Shown here in pieces: positions 55,995-64,000 of a DNA stretch of 64,000 bases; the stretch's first letter is position 1; every line of letters starts with the position of its first letter. Both the position numbers and the translations under genes were made by a program. Origin of the DNA: Thermoplasmatales archaeon (GTDB lineage: Archaea; Thermoplasmatota; Thermoplasmata; Thermoplasmatales; GCA-001856825); NCBI GenBank assembly GCA_026127935.1, contig JAJSLL010000004.1:3590-67589 (forward strand). The letters run 5' to 3'. The notes beneath the pieces are model-generated. The model had not been told where the DNA came from. It saw only the letters and a list, made by a program, of their open reading frames with translations, and ran no database searches.

Positions 55995-56174
55995 CTACCG
56001 TGAGAATGCTCTGGGAAGGATTGGTACCCGTAGCCTTTGAACACAGCTCATTCTCCCGACTTCAGACAGATCCTCCCTGATTTTCAATTCGTTGACAAAT
56101 TTCTTTATCAGCTTCTTGATTTCGTTGTTGTGCGGCCCTTTCTCAAGCATTCTATCACGCTTGTTCAGTAGCAT
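55995..56174 (-). CDS. hypothetical small protein (59 aa) at the border of the AT-rich element
   Basis: Hand-translated as MLLNKRDRMLEKGPHNNEIKKLIKKFVNELKIREDLSEVGRMSCVQRLRVPILPRAFSR. It is just under the ORF-track cutoff. The N-terminal 40 aa look like a real helical protein and the tail looks degenerate. Confidence 0.3.
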   Translation of the reverse strand: MLLNKRDRMLEKGPHNNEIKKLIKKFVNELKIREDLSEVGRMSCVQRLRVPILPRAFSR

Positions 56175-57207: not shown

Positions 57208-57369
57208 TCAACTTTTTTTCTGTTTTTCTATCCTTCTCTCAGTAAGTTCTCTTCTTATAAGGTTCTCAACAAGGTCTTTCGCTGAAAGACCATTTTCTAG
57301 AGCGTAAACTCTAGCTTTCTTCCATAGGTCCGAATCTATTCTAAAACTCGTCACCTGGTCCTTTGACAT
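57208..57369 (-). CDS. ribbon-helix-helix (CopG/Arc/MetJ-type) DNA-binding protein
   Basis: 53 aa from ATG 57369 (the ORF track starts at GTG 57390). It has a beta-strand TSFRIDSDLW, helix A KKARVYALENG and helix B SAKDLVENLIRRELT. Confidence 0.7.
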   Translation of the reverse strand: MSKDQVTSFRIDSDLWKKARVYALENGLSAKDLVENLIRRELTERRIEKQKKS

Positions 57370-57447
57370 ATTATTTTGTAATAATGTCACTTTACTAATA
57401 CTTGTCGATTCGTAGCATTGTAGTAAAGTATTAATATAAAACTACTA

Positions 57448-57470: not shown

Positions 57471-57668
57471 ATGGATAGAGAAAGCATTGAATTTTGGAAC
57501 GGTGCCTTGAAGTGTGCCATAAAGATGGAAAGGAAAGCGAGGGAATGCAGCAACATAGACCAACTGAGGGAAGAGATCTCTTACATGAGGCAGAGGATCG
57601 AGGATGTGCATATTCAGGACCCTGTCGAAGTTCTGAATATGATAGAAGAAGAGAAGGTGATAGATTGA
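57471..57668 (+). CDS. hypothetical small helical protein A (65 aa)
   Basis: The first gene of a three-gene plus-strand unit. It has the N-terminal motif EFWNGALKCAI. Its stop overlaps a TTG start of the next ORF (TTGA). Confidence 0.5.
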   Translation: MDRESIEFWNGALKCAIKMERKARECSNIDQLREEISYMRQRIEDVHIQDPVEVLNMIEEEKVID

Positions 57669-57901
57669 ACGCCGAGGACCAGAGGTTTTGGGATGGATTC
57701 CTGAAGGGAATACTTGCATGTGAAATCCTCGTAGAAGACATGCAAGAAGGCCTAAAGAACGAGAAAGGTAGCTTATATCCGGCACAGCTTACCATAGCGC
57801 AACTAAAAGACAACGTGGAAAGGATGCTTTCACGAGATACCTTAAAGACGCTAGGGGAAAGGAACCGAGAGCTGAGGGGAATATTGGAGGAGATAAGATG
57901 A
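57665..57901 (+). CDS. hypothetical small helical protein B (78 aa), paralog of A
   Basis: It is in frame with track ORF 57494..57901, but I propose a start at TTG 57665. The upstream part of the track ORF overlaps gene A and has poor composition. The N-terminal motif RFWDGFLKGIL parallels that of A. Confidence 0.45.
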   Translation: MNAEDQRFWDGFLKGILACEILVEDMQEGLKNEKGSLYPAQLTIAQLKDNVERMLSRDTLKTLGERNRELRGILEEIR

Positions 57902-58107
57902 TAGAGGATGACATGGATGATAGGGAACCCGAATCCTTCCATAGGGAGCAATACATGGAAGGCCTGATAGACGGATTGACATTGGCAATAACGCATCCTG
58001 ACAAACTAGAAGAATTGAGGAATTTCAGGGATACCGTGCTATTTTCGAAAGTCAAGGCTGCATGGCTGCCTACCCTAGTGGGACTAGGGATATTGAAGGA
58101 CTTTTAG
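57898..58107 (+). CDS. hypothetical small protein C (69 aa) with hydrophobic C-terminus
   Basis: It has an ATGA overlap with B. It shows loose similarity to the A/B motif (YMEGLIDGLTLAI). The C-terminal AAWLPTLVGLGIL looks like a membrane anchor. Confidence 0.45.
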   Translation: MIEDDMDDREPESFHREQYMEGLIDGLTLAITHPDKLEELRNFRDTVLFSKVKAAWLPTLVGLGILKDF

Positions 58108-58126
58108 CCATTCAAACTAACAACTT

Positions 58127-58162
58127 CCTTTTTCTTTTTTTGATTTCCTGTTTTCGAGTTTT
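58127..58162 (+). terminator. oligo-T termination region after the A-B-C unit
   Basis: CCTTTTTCTTTTTTTGATTTCCTGTTTTCGAGTTTTGC starts about 20 nt after the stop. Archaeal RNAP terminates at T-runs. Confidence 0.4.
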
Positions 58163-58494
58163 GCAACGTCAGGATCTCTGCTTTTACAATTAACGAATGA
58201 GGGAATACGATTATTCCGTATTCGACAGACATAAGCAGCTTCCAGGATATCTCTCCGGATCCTTCATTCCAGGAATGCAGCTGCTCTCAGGTCTCGCAGG
58301 CCTGTGAATCTTGTCCATCTTAGTTTGGACAACTAAATAGGCGATATATCTGAGTCCTCACAAATAACTACTCTTGCTGTGTGAATGTAGTCTTTATCTC
58401 CAGGATTAAATTTCGATACAATGATATTCGTTGGGCATCATCCACGGTTACAAGAAATACCTGAGCAACTTTTAGGGGAAACAACCAAAGGTAG

Positions 58495-58533
58495 AAAAAT
58501 GAGTCCCCCCTCTGGGGCAGTCACCGAAAAAAG
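58495..58533 (-). terminator. T-runs flanking a short GC hairpin downstream of the minus-strand operon
   Basis: The minus strand reads CTTTTTTCGG...CCCCAGAGGGGGG ACTCATTTTT, about 80-115 nt after the stop at 58611. Confidence 0.35.
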
Positions 58534-58547
58534 TAGACTTCAATTAC

Positions 58548-58574
58548 TATAACTAATATCTATTATAATATATA
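58548..58574. repeat. right copy of imperfect direct repeat (TATAACTAATATCTATTATAATATATA)
   Basis: See 56254..56278. It lies between the stop of the 248-aa gene and its putative terminator. Confidence 0.45.
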
Positions 58575-58610
58575 GGGGCCCGTATGAAGACTGTTTGGTA
58601 ATTGGTAATC

Positions 58611-59357
58611 TTATTCAATTTCATCGTCGTATTCGTCCTCCTCGTCATTACCGTCATCGTTACTGTCGGTAATATCATCATCGTCTATTAACTGGTTCTT
58701 CTTGTCTTTTAGGATTCGGTTTACATCACGCAAGGACATGTGCATAATTCTTGCAATATTAGCCTGGCTCTCGCCATCCTCGTAAAGGTCAAACACTTTA
58801 TCTTCTCTTTCTGTTTTTTCTTCTCCAGGGTTCTTGAGGGCATTATCTATAATCGTCAGCATCATCTTTTCTATGAATTCTGACAGCTCAACGAATTTTC
58901 CTCCAATCTTCTGGCAATCTAATTGTACCTGGACTTTATTTCTCTGTCTTTCATACGTGCCCATTGCTGGTTGGTCCTCATCTATCCCTGTAATGGTCTT
59001 ATCACTTACACAGCCGTAAAGGCCCTTGTAGCAGGAGAGGAGTCTTGGTAAGTCTGCCCTCCATGCGTCTTGGGGTCCGGAATATCTGACCTTTATCGGG
59101 CGTTCTTGCGTGCTGTAGGTGGAGATATAATTAACAAGTGCCCATAAATGATACGGGTCTCTGATTATCTCTTCGTATGTTTTGTGTATTCCATGGTTTT
59201 CAAGATATTCCCTATACTGGTCTGAAAGAATTAACCATTCAAAATACGGAGGTGCGTAGCCGTCTTCTTTTTGGCTTGGGTATTCCTCCGGTATCCAGAA
59301 GTTGTTCGTTACGTCTCGCCACATATTTGGTCTTCTTTCTTTCTCACGGTATCTCAT
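58611..59357 (-). CDS. hypothetical protein with C-terminal HTH and polyacidic tail
   Basis: 248 aa. The HTH-like segment is GESQANIARIMHMSLRDVNRILK (sigma-region-4/terminase-small-subunit-like). The tail is DDDDITDSNDDGNDEEDEYDDEIE. The N-terminal 170 aa are unrecognisable. Confidence 0.55.
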   Translation of the reverse strand: MRYREKERRPNMWRDVTNNFWIPEEYPSQKEDGYAPPYFEWLILSDQYREYLENHGIHKTYEEIIRDPYHLWALVNYISTYSTQERPIKVRYSGPQDAWRADLPRLLSCYKGLYGCVSDKTITGIDEDQPAMGTYERQRNKVQVQLDCQKIGGKFVELSEFIEKMMLTIIDNALKNPGEEKTEREDKVFDLYEDGESQANIARIMHMSLRDVNRILKDKKNQLIDDDDITDSNDDGNDEEDEYDDEIE

Positions 59358-59361
59358 TATC

Positions 59362-59769
59362 TCACCTTTTTGCCGTCAGGTCTCCCATAACGGAGACGAT
59401 TGCGTGCTTGAATACAAGGACATTCTGTCCTGTTCTTGAATCTATCAGGATTATGTCATACTGGCCGAAACTGGCTAGCTTTCCTGTTATCGTCTTACCG
59501 TTCACTAGTTCTAACGTCAGCATCTTTCCTATAAGCTGTTTGCCAAAGTTGTCTATCTGTCCTGGATAGATTGTCTGGTACCTGAAATTCGGTGCTGATT
59601 TTTCCGGATCGTTGCCATGCGAATTTGTCAATTCCTTGTTTGTTGCGTCTATGCTTTCACTCATTCTATTCACTTCCCCAGGAACTAAAGCATCCTGGTC
59701 TCTGTCCTCAGAAATGGTGGACATTGAACCGGATCTCGTGTTGTCAATTTTATGATGCAGATATCTCAT
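59362..59769 (-). CDS. Hfq/Sm-like domain protein with N-terminal extension
   Basis: The C-terminal 55 aa, LIGKMLTLELVNGKTITGKLASFGQYDIILIDSRTGQNVLVFKHAIVSV, are colinear with E. coli Hfq [39 protein letters not shown]. The start is uncertain: ATG 59769 (ATGA-coupled to the upstream micro-ORF), ATG 59784 or TTG 59802. Confidence 0.6.
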   Translation of the reverse strand: MRYLHHKIDNTRSGSMSTISEDRDQDALVPGEVNRMSESIDATNKELTNSHGNDPEKSAPNFRYQTIYPGQIDNFGKQLIGKMLTLELVNGKTITGKLASFGQYDIILIDSRTGQNVLVFKHAIVSVMGDLTAKR

Positions 59770-59894
59770 TTTTCCATCCTCCATCTTTTGATTGCTTTCC
59801 AAAACCGATCAAGATATTCCATTGAGTCCAGGATCATGACAAGCATCACAAACAGGGAGAGAAATACGAGAGCAAGCAATCTGACGTATATCAT
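59766..59894 (-). CDS. micro-ORF, 42-aa single-TM protein
   Basis: Absent from the ORF track. Hand-translated as MIYVRLLALVFLSLFVMLVMILDSMEYLDRFWKAIKRWRMEK. It has ATGA overlaps at both ends (59891-59894 and 59766-59769). Confidence 0.45.
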   Translation of the reverse strand: MIYVRLLALVFLSLFVMLVMILDSMEYLDRFWKAIKRWRMEK

Positions 59895-60418
59895 TCTTCA
59901 TTACCCCCGTTATCAATTGATTTAAGAGGAGATTGAGGACTAAGACGAGCAATTACACCTTTGGAATCTATCATCTCAGAAATGGCATTGTCTGAATACC
60001 CTTTTTGAACTTTCTTTCTGGATTCAGCTAGACTCTTTCCCCTCTGTCTGAGATTGTCGGATCTTTCCTCTGAGATCTCATGGTGCTTTCCTAACCATGC
60101 TTTCTCCCTTCTCCGATATTCTCGAATGGGATCCTTGATTGTATCAGGTAGGTCAGGGTCAATTCCCTCAGTTCCCTTTCTAACTATAAAATCCCTGTTA
60201 AGCATCTCCAGGGTGAAGTATCCCTGAGCTGCTTTCCTCTTGAGTTTCTTCATGGAATTAGTTATGGTCCTGAAGTGTGGGTTTTTGCAGATACTATCTT
60301 GACTATACCATGCTTGGAGGGGATTGCTTGAAAGAGGGCACAAAGGGCATTCACATTTCCCATACAAAGGACAGCTTTCAGGTCCTTTCAATCTGTTTTC
60401 GATACTCATTTCAATCAC
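59891..60418 (-). CDS. hypothetical protein with N-terminal Cys cluster
   Basis: 175 aa with CPLYGKCECPLCPL...C near the N-terminus and a basic C-terminal half. It starts at GTG 60418 (8-nt overlap with the upstream gene) or ATG 60409. Confidence 0.5.
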   Translation of the reverse strand: MIEMSIENRLKGPESCPLYGKCECPLCPLSSNPLQAWYSQDSICKNPHFRTITNSMKKLKRKAAQGYFTLEMLNRDFIVRKGTEGIDPDLPDTIKDPIREYRRREKAWLGKHHEISEERSDNLRQRGKSLAESRKKVQKGYSDNAISEMIDSKGVIARLSPQSPLKSIDNGGNEE

Positions 60419-60656
60419 TCTCCGTCAAAAAACGAGGGTCCACGAAGGGAAGGATACTATCATGGACCCTCAAATATCTCGAAGGGCCAAAGGCAGCACG
60501 GCCAGACGGAGGTTTTGATTCTTGATCCAGCCTGCTGTCTAAGGCCCTTCCATTCAGATTAACACGCTGTAAAGAACCTGAAGGTTCGAAGTGGTAGAAT
60601 TGAATGCAATTCAAGCTGTCCTCGTAATCTATGAATTTGACAAATTCATAGGTCAT
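60411..60656 (-). CDS. hypothetical protein (81 aa)
   Basis: The track ORF 60411..60731 is trimmed to ATG 60656. This start forms an ATGA overlap with the stop of the 748-aa gene (MTYEFVKFIDYEDS...). Confidence 0.45.
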   Translation of the reverse strand: MTYEFVKFIDYEDSLNCIQFYHFEPSGSLQRVNLNGRALDSRLDQESKPPSGRAAFGPSRYLRVHDSILPFVDPRFLTESD

Positions 60657-62899
60657 TGGGATTCCCCCACGTCTATCGGTCTCTCGTAAAGAAATCCGTC
60701 TTTTGACTGATTGACAAAGCGAAATCCACAATCCTTCATTTTATCGTCAGGCCTAAAAGGTGCCAAAACGTAGATCAGGAATCGATTATTTTCTCTGTCG
60801 ATCTTGGATGCTTCCTGATTTATCGTTATGTCCTTAGACCTCACTTCTTGAATCACATCATTAAAGTGATTAACTTCCATTTCTCGGTTCAACTCGATTA
60901 GTTTAATTAACTCGTTTAACCTTTTCAGTGAATTTTCGGCTTCTATCCGTATTCTCGAAACATCCCTAGTTTTGAGAAAATCAATTAACCTCCGATTAAC
61001 TCCGTTTAACTCGTTTAACCTCAAACCCTCAATTTTTGTGTTAATTGAGTTAAACGAACTAATTGAGTTAATCAGACTAATCAAGTTAATTAAAGTCTCA
61101 TCGTTATCACTTTCACCTTCATTATTCAGGTTAAATCTACTCCTTGCCAGGTTTATGAGTTCAAGATTGGACTCAAAGACGGTATAGTTGTGAGGTCCAG
61201 TACGAAAATCTCTCCCTATGTCCAGATAGATGAGTTTCTTCTTGATCTTCGAACTGTAAGTCCGGGGATTGAATTTCTTGGTCTGATTGACACCTTCCTT
61301 ATCTGCAATTAGCCCTGCTATCTCCTTTAGGCCAATCTCGCCCTTGAAGTCTATGCTCTTGCTCTTCTCCTGTATCAGCTGTTCTAAGCCGTCTATTACT
61401 ACCTGGTCGAAAGAATCAAGCGATATCTCTATTGCCTTGTCTTTCTGGTCATATAGAAATTCCCATACCTTGTTGGTGATATCGCTGTTGCCGTTTTGTT
61501 TGTCAAAAAATCGAGCTAGGACCAATAAGGGAAATGCCTTCTCCCATTCACGGCCCCTGACTTCTATTTCCTTGCCGTTTACGTTAGCCTTGTTTGAAAT
61601 GCCCTCGGATATCACGGTTTTGATTTCCTTCCAGTAGGTCAGCGTGAAAATCATAAGGCCGTCTCTCAGCTTTCCCCATTCCGGATTGAACGCCGAAACG
61701 TTGTTATTTGCTTTCTTGCTATCTTGCGTTCGGATCATAATGAAAACATATGATCGGTCCCTTATCGTTTCTGTCACATTGTTGATCGAGCAAAGGATCT
61801 TAGGCGAATAGGTAGGATACAGGACCCTCTTATTCCTGTGGCCTACTAGTTCAAGTCTCTGGACCTTCCCACTGGCCTGGTAACCTGAGTTCACGATGGC
61901 TTCTATATCCAGTTGATTTTCTGATTTCTCCTTGACGGTCATCTTCTCGTTTTCATCCTGGATAACAGTGCCCTGGGTGTCCTTGATTGTCCGGTATAGG
62001 TTCGGGCCAGTTACCGCAACTGTCTTGAAAGCATTGAAATCAAGCTGCTCATGGATATCCCCTACCTTGCTCTTTGCCGATCCCATTTCACCCTGCATTA
62101 GAAGATAAGGAACTGCTGTAAACAGTCTATAACAATATGTCAGGACCGTATATAACGAGTGAATCGTGCTTGCATTGACATTTCTTGCAAAATCAATATA
62201 TTCCTCATAACTGCTGACAAGTGAGTTGAAAAGCGACGTAGGTTCTATCTTTTCTTCTCCTTTCAGGAATCTTTGAATCGAATCAGTGGACCATCGGTCA
62301 TCGGGTATATCGTCAGGTTCTTCCAGGATGTATTTCTCTTTCAGTAGGTCATGGGAATTGAGTAACTGGACCTCTCTCTCGGAGGTTACCAGGAATAAAC
62401 CGAGCGCCGTGGTCTCTCCTATCTTTTTTCCTTCCTTATTGAAAAGTGGTTTTAGGTAAGGCAGCTTGGTCAGGAAATATGCCTTGTCATCAAAATACTG
62501 GGATGGATTGAACTTCTTCATTTGTTGGAATATTATCTTTGACCCGTCCTTCGCATTGAAAAGTTCGCCTATATTTTCCTGGTCATTTTTAGTCTTCAGT
62601 TCCGTAATTGTTCTTTCCCTGAAATCTGCTATTTGCTGTTCTTCTCTCTCTATACTCTCGATTGTTATCTTGTCTATCTTTCCTCTCAGGTCCTTAGGTA
62701 GTTCTTTTCTATATTTACTGCATATTTTCAATGCTCTCTGGACCTGCTTGGCATTCCACTTATCTTTCTGCTCGATTAGGTATTGTGCATCCTCGCCATC
62801 CATTTTATCTATGATTTGACCGTTCTTCTCGTTTGTCTTGCCTGTATCTGTGTTCACCAGGTAGATGAGACCTTTCCTAACATCATCTAGTTGCGTCAT
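60653..62899 (-). CDS. SF3-helicase-like P-loop NTPase (replicative helicase candidate of the element)
   Basis: 748 aa. It has a Walker-A-like QGEMGSAKSKV (GxxxxAKS), a Walker-B-like GTVIQDENE and a motif-C-like ILCSINNVT in that order. It lies immediately downstream of, and overlaps by 17 nt, the PrimPol gene. The C-terminal part contains hexapeptide repeats LINLIS/LINSIS/SFNSIN. Confidence 0.6.
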   Translation of the reverse strand: MTQLDDVRKGLIYLVNTDTGKTNEKNGQIIDKMDGEDAQYLIEQKDKWNAKQVQRALKICSKYRKELPKDLRGKIDKITIESIEREEQQIADFRERTITELKTKNDQENIGELFNAKDGSKIIFQQMKKFNPSQYFDDKAYFLTKLPYLKPLFNKEGKKIGETTALGLFLVTSEREVQLLNSHDLLKEKYILEEPDDIPDDRWSTDSIQRFLKGEEKIEPTSLFNSLVSSYEEYIDFARNVNASTIHSLYTVLTYCYRLFTAVPYLLMQGEMGSAKSKVGDIHEQLDFNAFKTVAVTGPNLYRTIKDTQGTVIQDENEKMTVKEKSENQLDIEAIVNSGYQASGKVQRLELVGHRNKRVLYPTYSPKILCSINNVTETIRDRSYVFIMIRTQDSKKANNNVSAFNPEWGKLRDGLMIFTLTYWKEIKTVISEGISNKANVNGKEIEVRGREWEKAFPLLVLARFFDKQNGNSDITNKVWEFLYDQKDKAIEISLDSFDQVVIDGLEQLIQEKSKSIDFKGEIGLKEIAGLIADKEGVNQTKKFNPRTYSSKIKKKLIYLDIGRDFRTGPHNYTVFESNLELINLARSRFNLNNEGESDNDETLINLISLINSISSFNSINTKIEGLRLNELNGVNRRLIDFLKTRDVSRIRIEAENSLKRLNELIKLIELNREMEVNHFNDVIQEVRSKDITINQEASKIDRENNRFLIYVLAPFRPDDKMKDCGFRFVNQSKDGFLYERPIDVGESQ
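60886..61095. repeat. iteron-like repeat cluster and imperfect palindrome inside the NTPase gene
   Basis: Copies of TCG(T/A)TTAAC-type units lie at 60891-60901, 60909-60920, 60992-61000, 61001-61010 and 61011-61019. An exact inverted copy GTTAAACGA lies at 61049-61057. The pair CTCAATT/AATTGAG flanks a T-rich centre at about 61036. Three 18-nt direct repeats of the form TAATTGAGTTAA-N6 lie at 61060-61077 and 61078-61095, with 61042-61059 as the leading copy. Confidence 0.7.
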
Positions 62900-63767
62900 G
62901 CTTTGATTCTCCTTTCAGCATTTTTGCTACCGTCTCAGTTGCTAGGCCGTACTTTCTATTTGCAACTTCCAGGACTTCCCAGAACTTATCTCCCCTCAAA
63001 GTTCCTGGCACAGCATCGGCACAATCAATTATTCCTTCGCTGACTGCGATCCATTCAAGAACGGACCCTCCGGAATCATGCCTGAAGCAGTGCCAGACGT
63101 TTTTTTCAATATCCACTGATAGATTTATTCCTGTTTCGGATCCATGAATGGGATGCGGGCCCTGGTACTGATTTCCGAAATGCCTGAAGCCAGCGAGGTC
63201 TATTAAGTCAGCTAAGGATAACCATGCTGTATTCTTCCTATTGACTTGGGGCCTTTCCTTCTTTTCGTTTGACCTTACCATGAACGGTCTCAAGGCTTCG
63301 ATAAGCTCCTCTTTCGTTATAATCTTGATAGGGTATTCTGATTTTCTGAGGCCATAAATCGCACCATTGGGATGTATTGAACCAGGACCAACAGCGTAAC
63401 CGTTCTGCCCTTTGATATATGCTCCGTCTTTGAGTGGAATATTCCTTATCGGAGGGTTTGATATTGCATAGACATACTGGCGATGGCCTTCTCTCCCTGT
63501 AGAATACCAGTAGGTTGGCAATCTGTCATCTAAGGCCGTTTGAATTTCCTTGGTATCCGCATCAACAAAACAGCAATCACCATTAGGACAGAATAGACCA
63601 TAATTTCCTCCTTTCCTAACCCACTCTTCAATCTCTTGACTGCTGAATGCATAATTTCTCTCAGTGGTCCATCCTCTTTCAAGTGGCTCTTTACGGGCGG
63701 GTAGAAGCTTGATACATCGGAACTTCGTATCGTTAAAATCTAACGTATGCCCTGTTTCCTGTTTCAC
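62883..63767 (-). CDS. bifunctional DNA primase/polymerase (PrimPol, archaeo-eukaryotic primase superfamily) with C-terminal zinc-binding motif
   Basis: 294 aa with a GTG start. It has KLLPARKEPLERGWT, the acidic motif CCFVDADT, and STGREGHRQYVY (sGxGxH-type motif). The C-terminal HPIHGSETG...WHCFRHDSGGSVLEWI resembles a CHC2-type primase zinc finger. Confidence 0.75.
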   Translation of the reverse strand: MKQETGHTLDFNDTKFRCIKLLPARKEPLERGWTTERNYAFSSQEIEEWVRKGGNYGLFCPNGDCCFVDADTKEIQTALDDRLPTYWYSTGREGHRQYVYAISNPPIRNIPLKDGAYIKGQNGYAVGPGSIHPNGAIYGLRKSEYPIKIITKEELIEALRPFMVRSNEKKERPQVNRKNTAWLSLADLIDLAGFRHFGNQYQGPHPIHGSETGINLSVDIEKNVWHCFRHDSGGSVLEWIAVSEGIIDCADAVPGTLRGDKFWEVLEVANRKYGLATETVAKMLKGESKHDATR

Positions 63768-63883: not shown

Positions 63884-64000
63884 TAATGACCGTACCTCTC
63901 TTCTCGTTTTCCGGACAATATCTTGTCGTTCTGGTCCACGATGGACCGGTCCAGTTCCTTAAGCTCCTTCCTCAAATTTCTCAGTTGTTCCTGAACAAAT
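63883..64000 (-). CDS. hypothetical coiled-coil protein, 3' part only (gene starts beyond the right edge)
   Basis: The minus-strand frame is open to the window edge: ...FVQEQLRNLRKELKELDRSIVDQNDKILSGKREERYGH, then stop. Confidence 0.4.
   Translation of the reverse strand, partial: FVQEQLRNLRKELKELDRSIVDQNDKILSGKREERYGH

Follow-up and report, generated by a model that had tools for sequence, protein, structure and literature searches.

An Hfq-type Sm protein encoded in the replication operon of an integrative element from Thermoplasmatales

Hfq-like genes directly downstream of helicase genes were described on plasmids of Thermococcales and Methanococcales in 2013 (Krupovic et al., 2013; PMC3543421) and were reviewed by Mura et al. 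(2013; PMC3710371). The bearers include Thermococcus and Pyrococcus plasmids (pP12-1, pCIR10 and pIRI48, in the last as gene 2), pMETVU01 (Metvu_1762), the M. jannaschii elements ECE1 and ECE2, and pFS01; the same work mentions a variant of the Sm fold in PSV (PMC3543421). In the current annotation of pMETVU01 the helicase gene is followed by 'RNA chaperone Hfq', and a 2023 survey of archaeal Lsm proteins recorded Hfq in a single archaeal species, M. jannaschii. Here we analyse an Hfq-like gene on a 64,000-nucleotide (nt) stretch of a Thermoplasmatales archaeon (GCA_026127935.1, contig JAJSLL010000004.1, positions 3,590-67,589 of the forward strand; hereafter the window), where it lies in the replication operon of an integrative element. 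The initial annotation of this locus took Hfq-type proteins to be rare in archaea and knew of no described role for them on archaeal plasmids or viruses, a novelty premise that is outdated in view of the plasmid genes listed above. Moreover, GenBank already lists the exact window protein (MCW6158344.1) as 'RNA chaperone Hfq', and relatives bear the IMG label 'sRNA-binding regulator protein Hfq'. Given the 2013 plasmid genes, the gene is not new in kind; element-borne archaeal Hfq-like proteins are under-appreciated, yet not new.

Identity and extent of the Sm protein

The minus-strand open reading frame (ORF) at 59362-59802 begins with TTG and encodes 146 amino acids (aa). Its residues 95-139 match the Pfam Hfq family PF17209 with an E value of 3.7e-7 and 30.1 bits, above the curated gathering cut-off of 27, and the 100-aa form described below reaches 31.1 bits against the same profile, which is also matched by 15 of 27 family members and relatives. 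The match to the LSM family PF01423 stays below its cut-off (15.6-16.6 bits against 23.4) and covers only residues 88-115; the Hfq_1 profile, at 15.3 bits for the 146-aa ORF, is likewise under its cut-off. When all sequences of the Protein Data Bank (PDB) were searched with phmmer, the top matches were only Hfq or Hfq-like chains (Aquifex 5szd, Caulobacter 6gwk and M. jannaschii 2qtx/5dy9). In these alignments LVNG, SF.Q(Y/F) and (Y/F)KHAI are in register, and VFKHAI at residues 130-135 is aligned with the YKHAI of Aquifex and Caulobacter Hfq. A monomer model built with AlphaFold2 on an alignment of 39 family members has a short helix (88-90) followed by five strands (94-99, 104-112, 116-121, 127-131 and 135-140) within residues 83-141, with a predicted local distance difference test score (pLDDT) of ~90. 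The top 50 Foldseek matches of this model in the PDB were all Hfq, including those of Listeria, Caulobacter, E. coli and M. jannaschii, with TM-scores normalised to the target of up to 0.81 and root-mean-square deviations (rmsd) of 1.1-2.5 A. Purifying selection on the Sm core is strong, the ratio of non-synonymous to synonymous change (pN/pS) being 0.09 in comparison with the related locus L014. On the basis of the profile, the PDB alignments, the model and the Foldseek matches, the likeness to Hfq is wider than the KHAI string and far beyond chance, and the gene encodes a genuine Sm protein that is Hfq-type rather than SmAP-type. The initial annotation had proposed both the residue-by-residue alignment with the Sm1/Sm2 core of bacterial Hfq and the Hfq-type assignment, and had suggested profile and structure prediction as the way to check them; both proposals are upheld by these results.

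The family-wide unit is a protein of 100 aa that starts at M47 of the ORF. About 50 of the 53 homologue clusters are 99-104 aa long and begin at the equivalent of M47, and in the window a Shine-Dalgarno-like GGGGAAGTGA lies just before the M47 ATG. Only two versions are longer, namely the window protein, called as 140 aa from M7 by the Prokaryotic Genome Annotation Pipeline (PGAP), and P0002 (135 aa). Codons 1-11 are absent from every homologue except the PGAP call starting at M7. Since a conserved 42-aa gene in another frame runs over these codons, nearly all homologues start at M47 and the intervening segment M12-R46 is confined to a sub-lineage, the fused N-terminal extension of about 80 aa, polar and probably disordered, that had been suggested for this protein does not exist as a domain: the ORF is over-extended. 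Nor is the N-terminal part of the 100-aa protein mere polar filler. Although the 36 residues from M47 to the Sm helix were poorly modelled by AlphaFold2, they hold a family-conserved motif, NSHGxDxE..NFRYQTIYPGQIDNFGK, which echoes PNFEYARRLNGK of M. jannaschii Hfq.

In sequence comparison the M12-R46 extension looks like a recombination scar, a chimera of the start of a neighbouring small gene and a leader segment. At its N-terminus, the 11 residues MRYLHHKIDNT are similar to the beginning of a small soluble protein (VRYIHHLIDNTKFKF) that L005, L009 and L017 encode at this position, and 59664-59728 on the minus strand is 89% identical to L001 277-341, which there lies upstream of an unrelated gene, an arrangement also found in L018. 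A 135-aa isoform starting at M12 may nevertheless be made in addition to the 100-aa form: the M12 ATG shares an ATGA with the stop codon of the 42-aa gene, L014 retains a start codon at this position as GTG, and pN/pS for codons 12-46 is 0.28, a value that comes from only 14 substitutions in one pair (with L014). These three observations, together with a frame that is open from 59802 and the 140-aa PGAP product, would also suit a two-domain product whose long disordered N-terminal extension of ~80 aa is functional, for instance as a protein-interaction tail. We regard such a product as quite unlikely, given the conserved gene in the other frame over codons 1-11, the lack of the extension in about 50 of 53 homologues, its apparent origin from two unrelated upstream segments, the Shine-Dalgarno-like sequence before M47 and the small number of substitutions behind the pN/pS value.

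The leader of the 100-aa form contains an inverted repeat that could form a hairpin (Table 1). The motif occurs once in the window, where no match is expected by chance, and is also present in L001, L018 and L014-L016; no further copy was found in the window and none in the JGI metagenomes. The ~65-nt segment that carries it (59664-59728; L001 277-341; L018 280-344) abuts the starts of two unrelated genes in different elements, preceding the Hfq-like gene in the window and, in L001 and L018, a gene of 59 aa. In L001 the segment can be translated as an upstream ORF of 30 codons, which extends over the following ATG.

The operon and the element

The minus-strand gene order is primase-polymerase (PrimPol), 748-aa protein, 81-aa protein, 175-aa Cys-rich protein, 42-aa peptide, Hfq-like protein and a 248-aa helix-turn-helix (HTH) protein (Table 1). 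Three of the junctions are ATGA start/stop overlaps and the remaining genes overlap or sit a few nt apart, while the GGTGA Shine-Dalgarno sequence of the HTH gene is embedded in the 3' end of the Hfq-like gene. The ATGA overlaps and the embedded Shine-Dalgarno sequence indicate a translationally coupled operon; with PrimPol upstream, this agrees with the earlier suggestion that the gene is coupled within the replication operon of a mobile element.

Table 1. Features of the Hfq-like locus and the surrounding element (window coordinates).
Feature	Coordinates	Strand	Basis or remark
Tyrosine integrase, N-terminal fragment	56025..56153	-	tblastn to residues 14-56 of L005 integrase, 49% identity, E 1.6e-5
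60-aa Arc/ribbon-helix-helix (RHH)-like repressor gene	57208..57390	-	PHROG Arc-like repressor, E 2.4e-5
248-aa protein, C-terminal HTH, acidic tail	58611..59357	-	begins 4 nt past Hfq stop; weak HTH matches (Sigma70_r4_2 E 0.0035)
Hfq-like gene, 100-aa form (start M47 of 146-aa ORF)	59362..59664	-	Pfam, AlphaFold2, Foldseek, homologue starts
Sm/Hfq core, ORF residues 83-141	59380-59556	-	AlphaFold2 model
In-frame 35-codon extension M12-R46, sub-lineage-specific	59665..59769	-	present only in P0001 and P0002
Inverted repeat CCAGGA-tgctttagt-TCCTGG, hairpin-forming	59678..59698	-	within 59664-59728, just upstream of GGGGAAGTGA and M47 ATG
First 11 codons of 146-aa ORF, probably outside the protein	59770..59802	-	overlapped by conserved 42-aa gene in other frame
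42-aa hydrophobic peptide gene, single transmembrane-like segment, basic tail (MIYVRLLALVFLSLFVMLVMILDSMEYLDRFWKAIKRWRMEK)	59766..59894	-	ATGA overlaps with genes on both sides
175-aa Cys-rich protein	59891..60418	-	conserved C16, C22, C27, C44, then GYFTLEMLNRDFIVR.G.EG..PD.PD block
81-aa protein	60411..60656	-	homologous to 81-aa genes of L001 and L014; ATG overlaps 748-aa stop (ATGA)
748-aa protein, replicative-helicase position	60653..62899	-	homologues in L014 and L017
PrimPol with CHC2 zinc-ribbon	62883..63767	-	Pfam Prim-Pol E 1.4e-10, 42.3 bits (cut-off 22.8); PHROG DNA primase

Within the window no recognisable gene of the operon precedes that for PrimPol, a protein 42% identical to the PrimPol of L023. 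The 748-aa protein had no match in Pfam, PHROG, NCBIfam, PDB or PADLOC, BLAST showed no similarity between it and the proteins that take the helicase position in other elements, and its designation as the putative replicative helicase of the element is drawn from its position only; in L009 the protein at this position contains D5_N and DUF5906. The Cys-rich protein adjoins the Hfq-like protein in 8 of 10 compared loci and also in the distant locus L023. Its family, with 107 homologue clusters, none of which has a Pfam domain, is larger than that of the Hfq-like protein, and its AlphaFold2 model is of low confidence (pLDDT 47). The 42-aa gene is conserved in L001, L014 and L019 with pN/pS of 0.12-0.26, indicating purifying selection; other elements have a small soluble protein, unrelated to the peptide, in its place. 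DNA homology with L014 ends at 59355, and the 248-aa HTH protein, which is soluble, has no BLAST match to relatives. Most relatives have after Hfq a protein of ~150 aa with an N-terminal HTH and a C-terminal transmembrane helix (L001 10260-10721, L009 10308-10766 and L021 2421-2858), to which the window protein is not homologous. A 100-aa 'cluster 14' protein of related elements was considered as a second Sm paralogue and was not supported by hhalign and PDB searches. Scans of the module with PHROGs, PADLOC and NCBIfam gave nothing useful beyond PrimPol and the Arc-like repressor.

The integrase fragment probably marks the left edge of the element. To its left lie host-type genes (PhoU_div, PHO4 and transporters), the GC content falls to 0.38 at 56-58 kb, and the element extends past the window end at 64000. 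The fragment, the only integrase sequence seen in the window, stands at the element end opposite to that of the intact integrase in L017, and could have been left by an earlier insertion, by a tandem one or by a split integrase gene of SSV type. Three small plus-strand genes at 57471-58107 (65, ~78 and 69 aa), divergent from the Arc/RHH-like gene, are conserved in L001, L014 and L020; a listed 183-aa minus-strand ORF across them is probably spurious. In the gap between convergent genes at 58107-58611, the segment 58200-58340 is conserved at 77-83% with L014 and L001 and at 70% with L020. Its substitutions fall on the three codon positions as 13/9/14, with no period-3 bias, there is no ORF common to all loci, and short palindromes are present (GCAGCTGC and CAGGCCTG). 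The block may be an origin or a regulatory site, or it may encode a small RNA.

The Hfq-like family was found in the same module at all loci examined. In L005-L008, on a 559-kb contig, the module is flanked by a gene for a 434-aa tyrosine integrase on one side and by host purA on the other. In L009-L012 it follows the D5_N/DUF5906 primase-helicase, with the order helicase, 76 aa, 41 aa and Hfq-like in L009, and precedes cargo. This cargo has the character of a defence island (L009 11537-20207 and L011 10768-19534) and consists of type I restriction-modification genes (HsdM/S/R), GmrSD and a SIR2-domain protein. The element in L017 lies between two copies, 12.6 kb apart, of a perfect 22-nt direct repeat that duplicates the 3' end of a tRNA-Arg gene. 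It encodes an integrase (419 aa, Pfam Phage_integrase E 3.9e-25), PrimPol, the Cys-rich and Hfq-like proteins and a homologue, 749 aa long, of the window's 748-aa protein; in L019 an integrase lies beside tRNA-Gly. One metagenome-assembled genome (MAG) carries two different elements on the 524-kb contig JAKAXD010000001.1 (L018, 142645-162947, and L019, 415317-435619), which have one family of helicase-position protein in common (665 and 754 aa). The helicase-position proteins of different elements are mutually unalignable, while the Hfq-like gene is 59-89% identical across the same elements. The linkage of PrimPol, Hfq-like and Cys-rich genes persists in L023 at identities of 42%, 40% (Hfq core) and 38%. 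Searches of L005 and L019 for attachment (att) repeats found none, the window does not contain the att sequence of L017, and a search for a free circular form gave no contig with terminal overlap. Encoding by a mobile element, as proposed in the initial annotation, is thus supported by the upstream PrimPol, by the modules beside integrases in relatives, by the att-bounded L017, by the two elements on one contig of a MAG and by cargo that varies between elements. Together, the loci point to a small family of plasmid-like Thermoplasmata elements with a tyrosine integrase and insertion at tRNA genes, of which the Hfq-like gene is a core gene.

A scan of one genome per species (185,579 species) returned 4 loci, all in Thermoplasmata MAGs, and a profile search of 1.84 billion representative proteins returned 33 clusters at E <= 1e-3; the family is almost wholly from Thermoplasmata. 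The weakest matches of the profile search (P0074, P0075, P0083 and P0085) included tandem proteins with two Hfq-like domains and a fusion of a C2H2 zinc finger to Hfq, of the type known from Thermococcales plasmids, the latter (P0085) being reached at E 1e-3. No relatives were found in IMG/VR or in JGI metagenome contigs. With the Hfq core as tblastn query, plasmid sequences gave only weak matches to bacterial hfq and no archaeal plasmid, and phages gave nothing.

Proposed function and alternatives

We propose, with moderate confidence, that the gene encodes an Hfq-type Sm protein of ~100 aa, a core gene product of these integrative elements, which would act as a ring on U-rich single-stranded RNA and tune element transcripts or replication RNAs. 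The protein is predicted to assemble into a ring whose conserved proximal pocket would bind single-stranded U-rich RNA. In HMMER alignments F112, Q114, Y115, K132 and H133 correspond to F39, Q41, F42, K56 and H57 of E. coli Hfq, residues that make up the uridine pocket in crystal structures of Hfq with RNA, for example 1KQ2. The family alignment has Q114 and K132 in all members, F112 and Y115 in at least 90% and H133 in most; it is the conservation of these five residues that points to U-rich RNA binding at the proximal face. The gene is expected to be co-transcribed and translationally coupled with the genes for PrimPol, the helicase-position protein, the Cys-rich protein, the small peptide and the HTH protein, and because of this place in the operon the most likely targets are the element's own transcripts or replication RNAs, through which the ring would tune the expression of replication and maintenance genes. 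The Cys-rich neighbour probably acts together with it. RNA-based control of copy number or a chaperone role in replication, as first suggested for this gene, is plausible.

Several results weigh against this proposal. The NCBIfam Hfq equivalogs were missed (TIGR02383, 29.6 bits against 61.7; NF001602, 27.8 bits against 95), and scores so far under the cut-off mean that the protein and bacterial Hfq are not orthologues. Four divergent members (P0046, P0047, P0050 and P0051) have S or T in place of H133, so that the KH pair is not strictly required, and the equivalent of the distal-face Y25 is Glu, so that A-rich binding in the style of Hfq is not evident. As regards a partner RNA, no covariation was detected in the 58200-58340 block, and a scan with Rfam gave nothing at E <= 1 save one implausible match. 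Finally, the same features would fit a role on DNA, since DNA binding has been reported for both Hfq and SmAPs (PMC3543421, PMC3710371).

A ring that works directly in DNA replication is indeed a serious alternative, possible though not probable in our estimate. Such a ring would act on single-stranded DNA, at the origin or at primer-template junctions, as a loader or as a protein of single-stranded DNA-binding (SSB)-like or nucleoid type, and would aid PrimPol and the helicase. Besides the reported DNA binding, it is favoured by the fixed position of the gene, which at all loci examined comes after those for PrimPol and the helicase-position protein, by the Cys-rich protein as a constant neighbour, and by the same placement on the unrelated Thermococcales and Methanococcales plasmids, where fusion of some copies to a zinc finger suggests DNA targeting. 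However, the residues that have been kept are those of the uridine-binding proximal pocket and no DNA-binding motif has been added. A specific helicase-Hfq complex is further disfavoured because the helicase-position proteins found with this one Hfq-like gene differ and cannot be aligned with one another.

The protein might instead be used against the host, as an imported chaperone that rewires the stability or translation of host RNA or counters host defence to the advantage of the element, rather than in control of the element's own replication. Archaeal hosts generally have SmAP/Lsm proteins without Hfq, as judged from the 2023 survey with its single Hfq-bearing species; moreover, these elements carry variable defence-type cargo, and Sm/Hfq-like folds occur in archaeal viruses (ATV ORF86 and PSV) and in many phages. 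Yet the gene lies in the replication operon rather than in the cargo region, the PADLOC scan gave no match, and the linkage with PrimPol and the Cys-rich protein is very tight over divergent elements, all of which renders an anti-host role unlikely. The plain Hfq labels in GenBank and IMG could also suggest the host's own housekeeping Hfq, the result of a single bacterial acquisition that came to lie beside a mobile element by chance. We consider this highly improbable: the 4 loci found among 185,579 species-representative genomes include two on a single contig of one MAG, the gene is always within the same type of module and is inside the att-bounded element in L017, and the score falls far short of the bacterial Hfq equivalogs.

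A broader and doubtful reading is that the Hfq-like protein, the Cys-rich protein, the small peptide and the HTH protein form a dedicated module for replication control or primer handling that has been recruited repeatedly beside the helicases of archaeal elements. If true, the module would be the first case in archaea of element-borne Hfq-dependent riboregulation or of an Sm ring as a replisome accessory. The window locus alone does not make the biological question more tractable; of the leads that it offers, the pairing, conserved among the elements, with the uncharacterised Cys-rich protein is the most interesting and provides a testable partner.

Comparison with known Hfq-like proteins

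Among virus and phage proteins, ATV ORF86, PSV Q6ZYJ4 and the mycobacteriophage 'Hfq-like domain' proteins have the fold and the encoding by a virus or element in common with the window protein, but the likeness is structural only, at 13-26% identity, and no sequence-level match was found in the phage collection or IMG/VR. Bacterial Hfq (PF17209; TIGR02383) has the same fold, the LVNG..G...SF.Q(Y/F) and (Y/F)KHAI motifs and the proximal-pocket residues, whereas the window protein, archaeal and element-encoded, is without the Y25 aromatic residue, has a loop between strands 3 and 4 that is two residues longer and has no C-terminal tail. M. jannaschii Hfq (MJ1435; 2QTX, 4X9C and 5DY9) is likewise an archaeal Hfq-type protein with FKHAI and an NF.Y segment before the first helix, and matches the window protein at a TM-score normalised to the target of 0.80, an rmsd of 1.4-2.4 A and phmmer E values of 0.006-0.01. 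MJ1435 is, however, a chromosomal protein of 71 aa; the window protein comes from an element, and its conserved N-terminal segment is longer. Strand 3 reads VSNYE in MJ1435 and SFGQYD in the window protein.

Counterparts in context are the plasmid proteins of Thermococcales and Methanococcales, which also have a C-terminal Hfq-like Sm domain and are encoded on archaeal mobile elements in a replication transcription unit downstream of a helicase gene, a putative one in the window. Most of them carry an N-terminal C2H2 zinc finger (CPICG...H....H in the pMETVU01 protein; pIRI48 gp2 is without one), whereas the window protein has no Cys/His motif upstream of the Sm core and has its own conserved RY.T..G..DNFGK segment instead. 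The Sm cores of the pMETVU01 and window proteins are only marginally similar (BLASTP E 0.099; hhalign E 0.007). On the plasmids the Hfq-like gene is immediately downstream of the helicase gene, while in the window three small genes separate it from the helicase-position gene; and the plasmids are free, whereas the Thermoplasmatota element is integrative. The window locus and its relatives thus extend the 2013 plasmid observation to a second phylum (Thermoplasmatota), to a probably tRNA-integrating type of element and to an independent sequence family, and strengthen the idea that Sm/Hfq rings are a recurrent and functionally important accessory of the replication or regulation of archaeal mobile elements.

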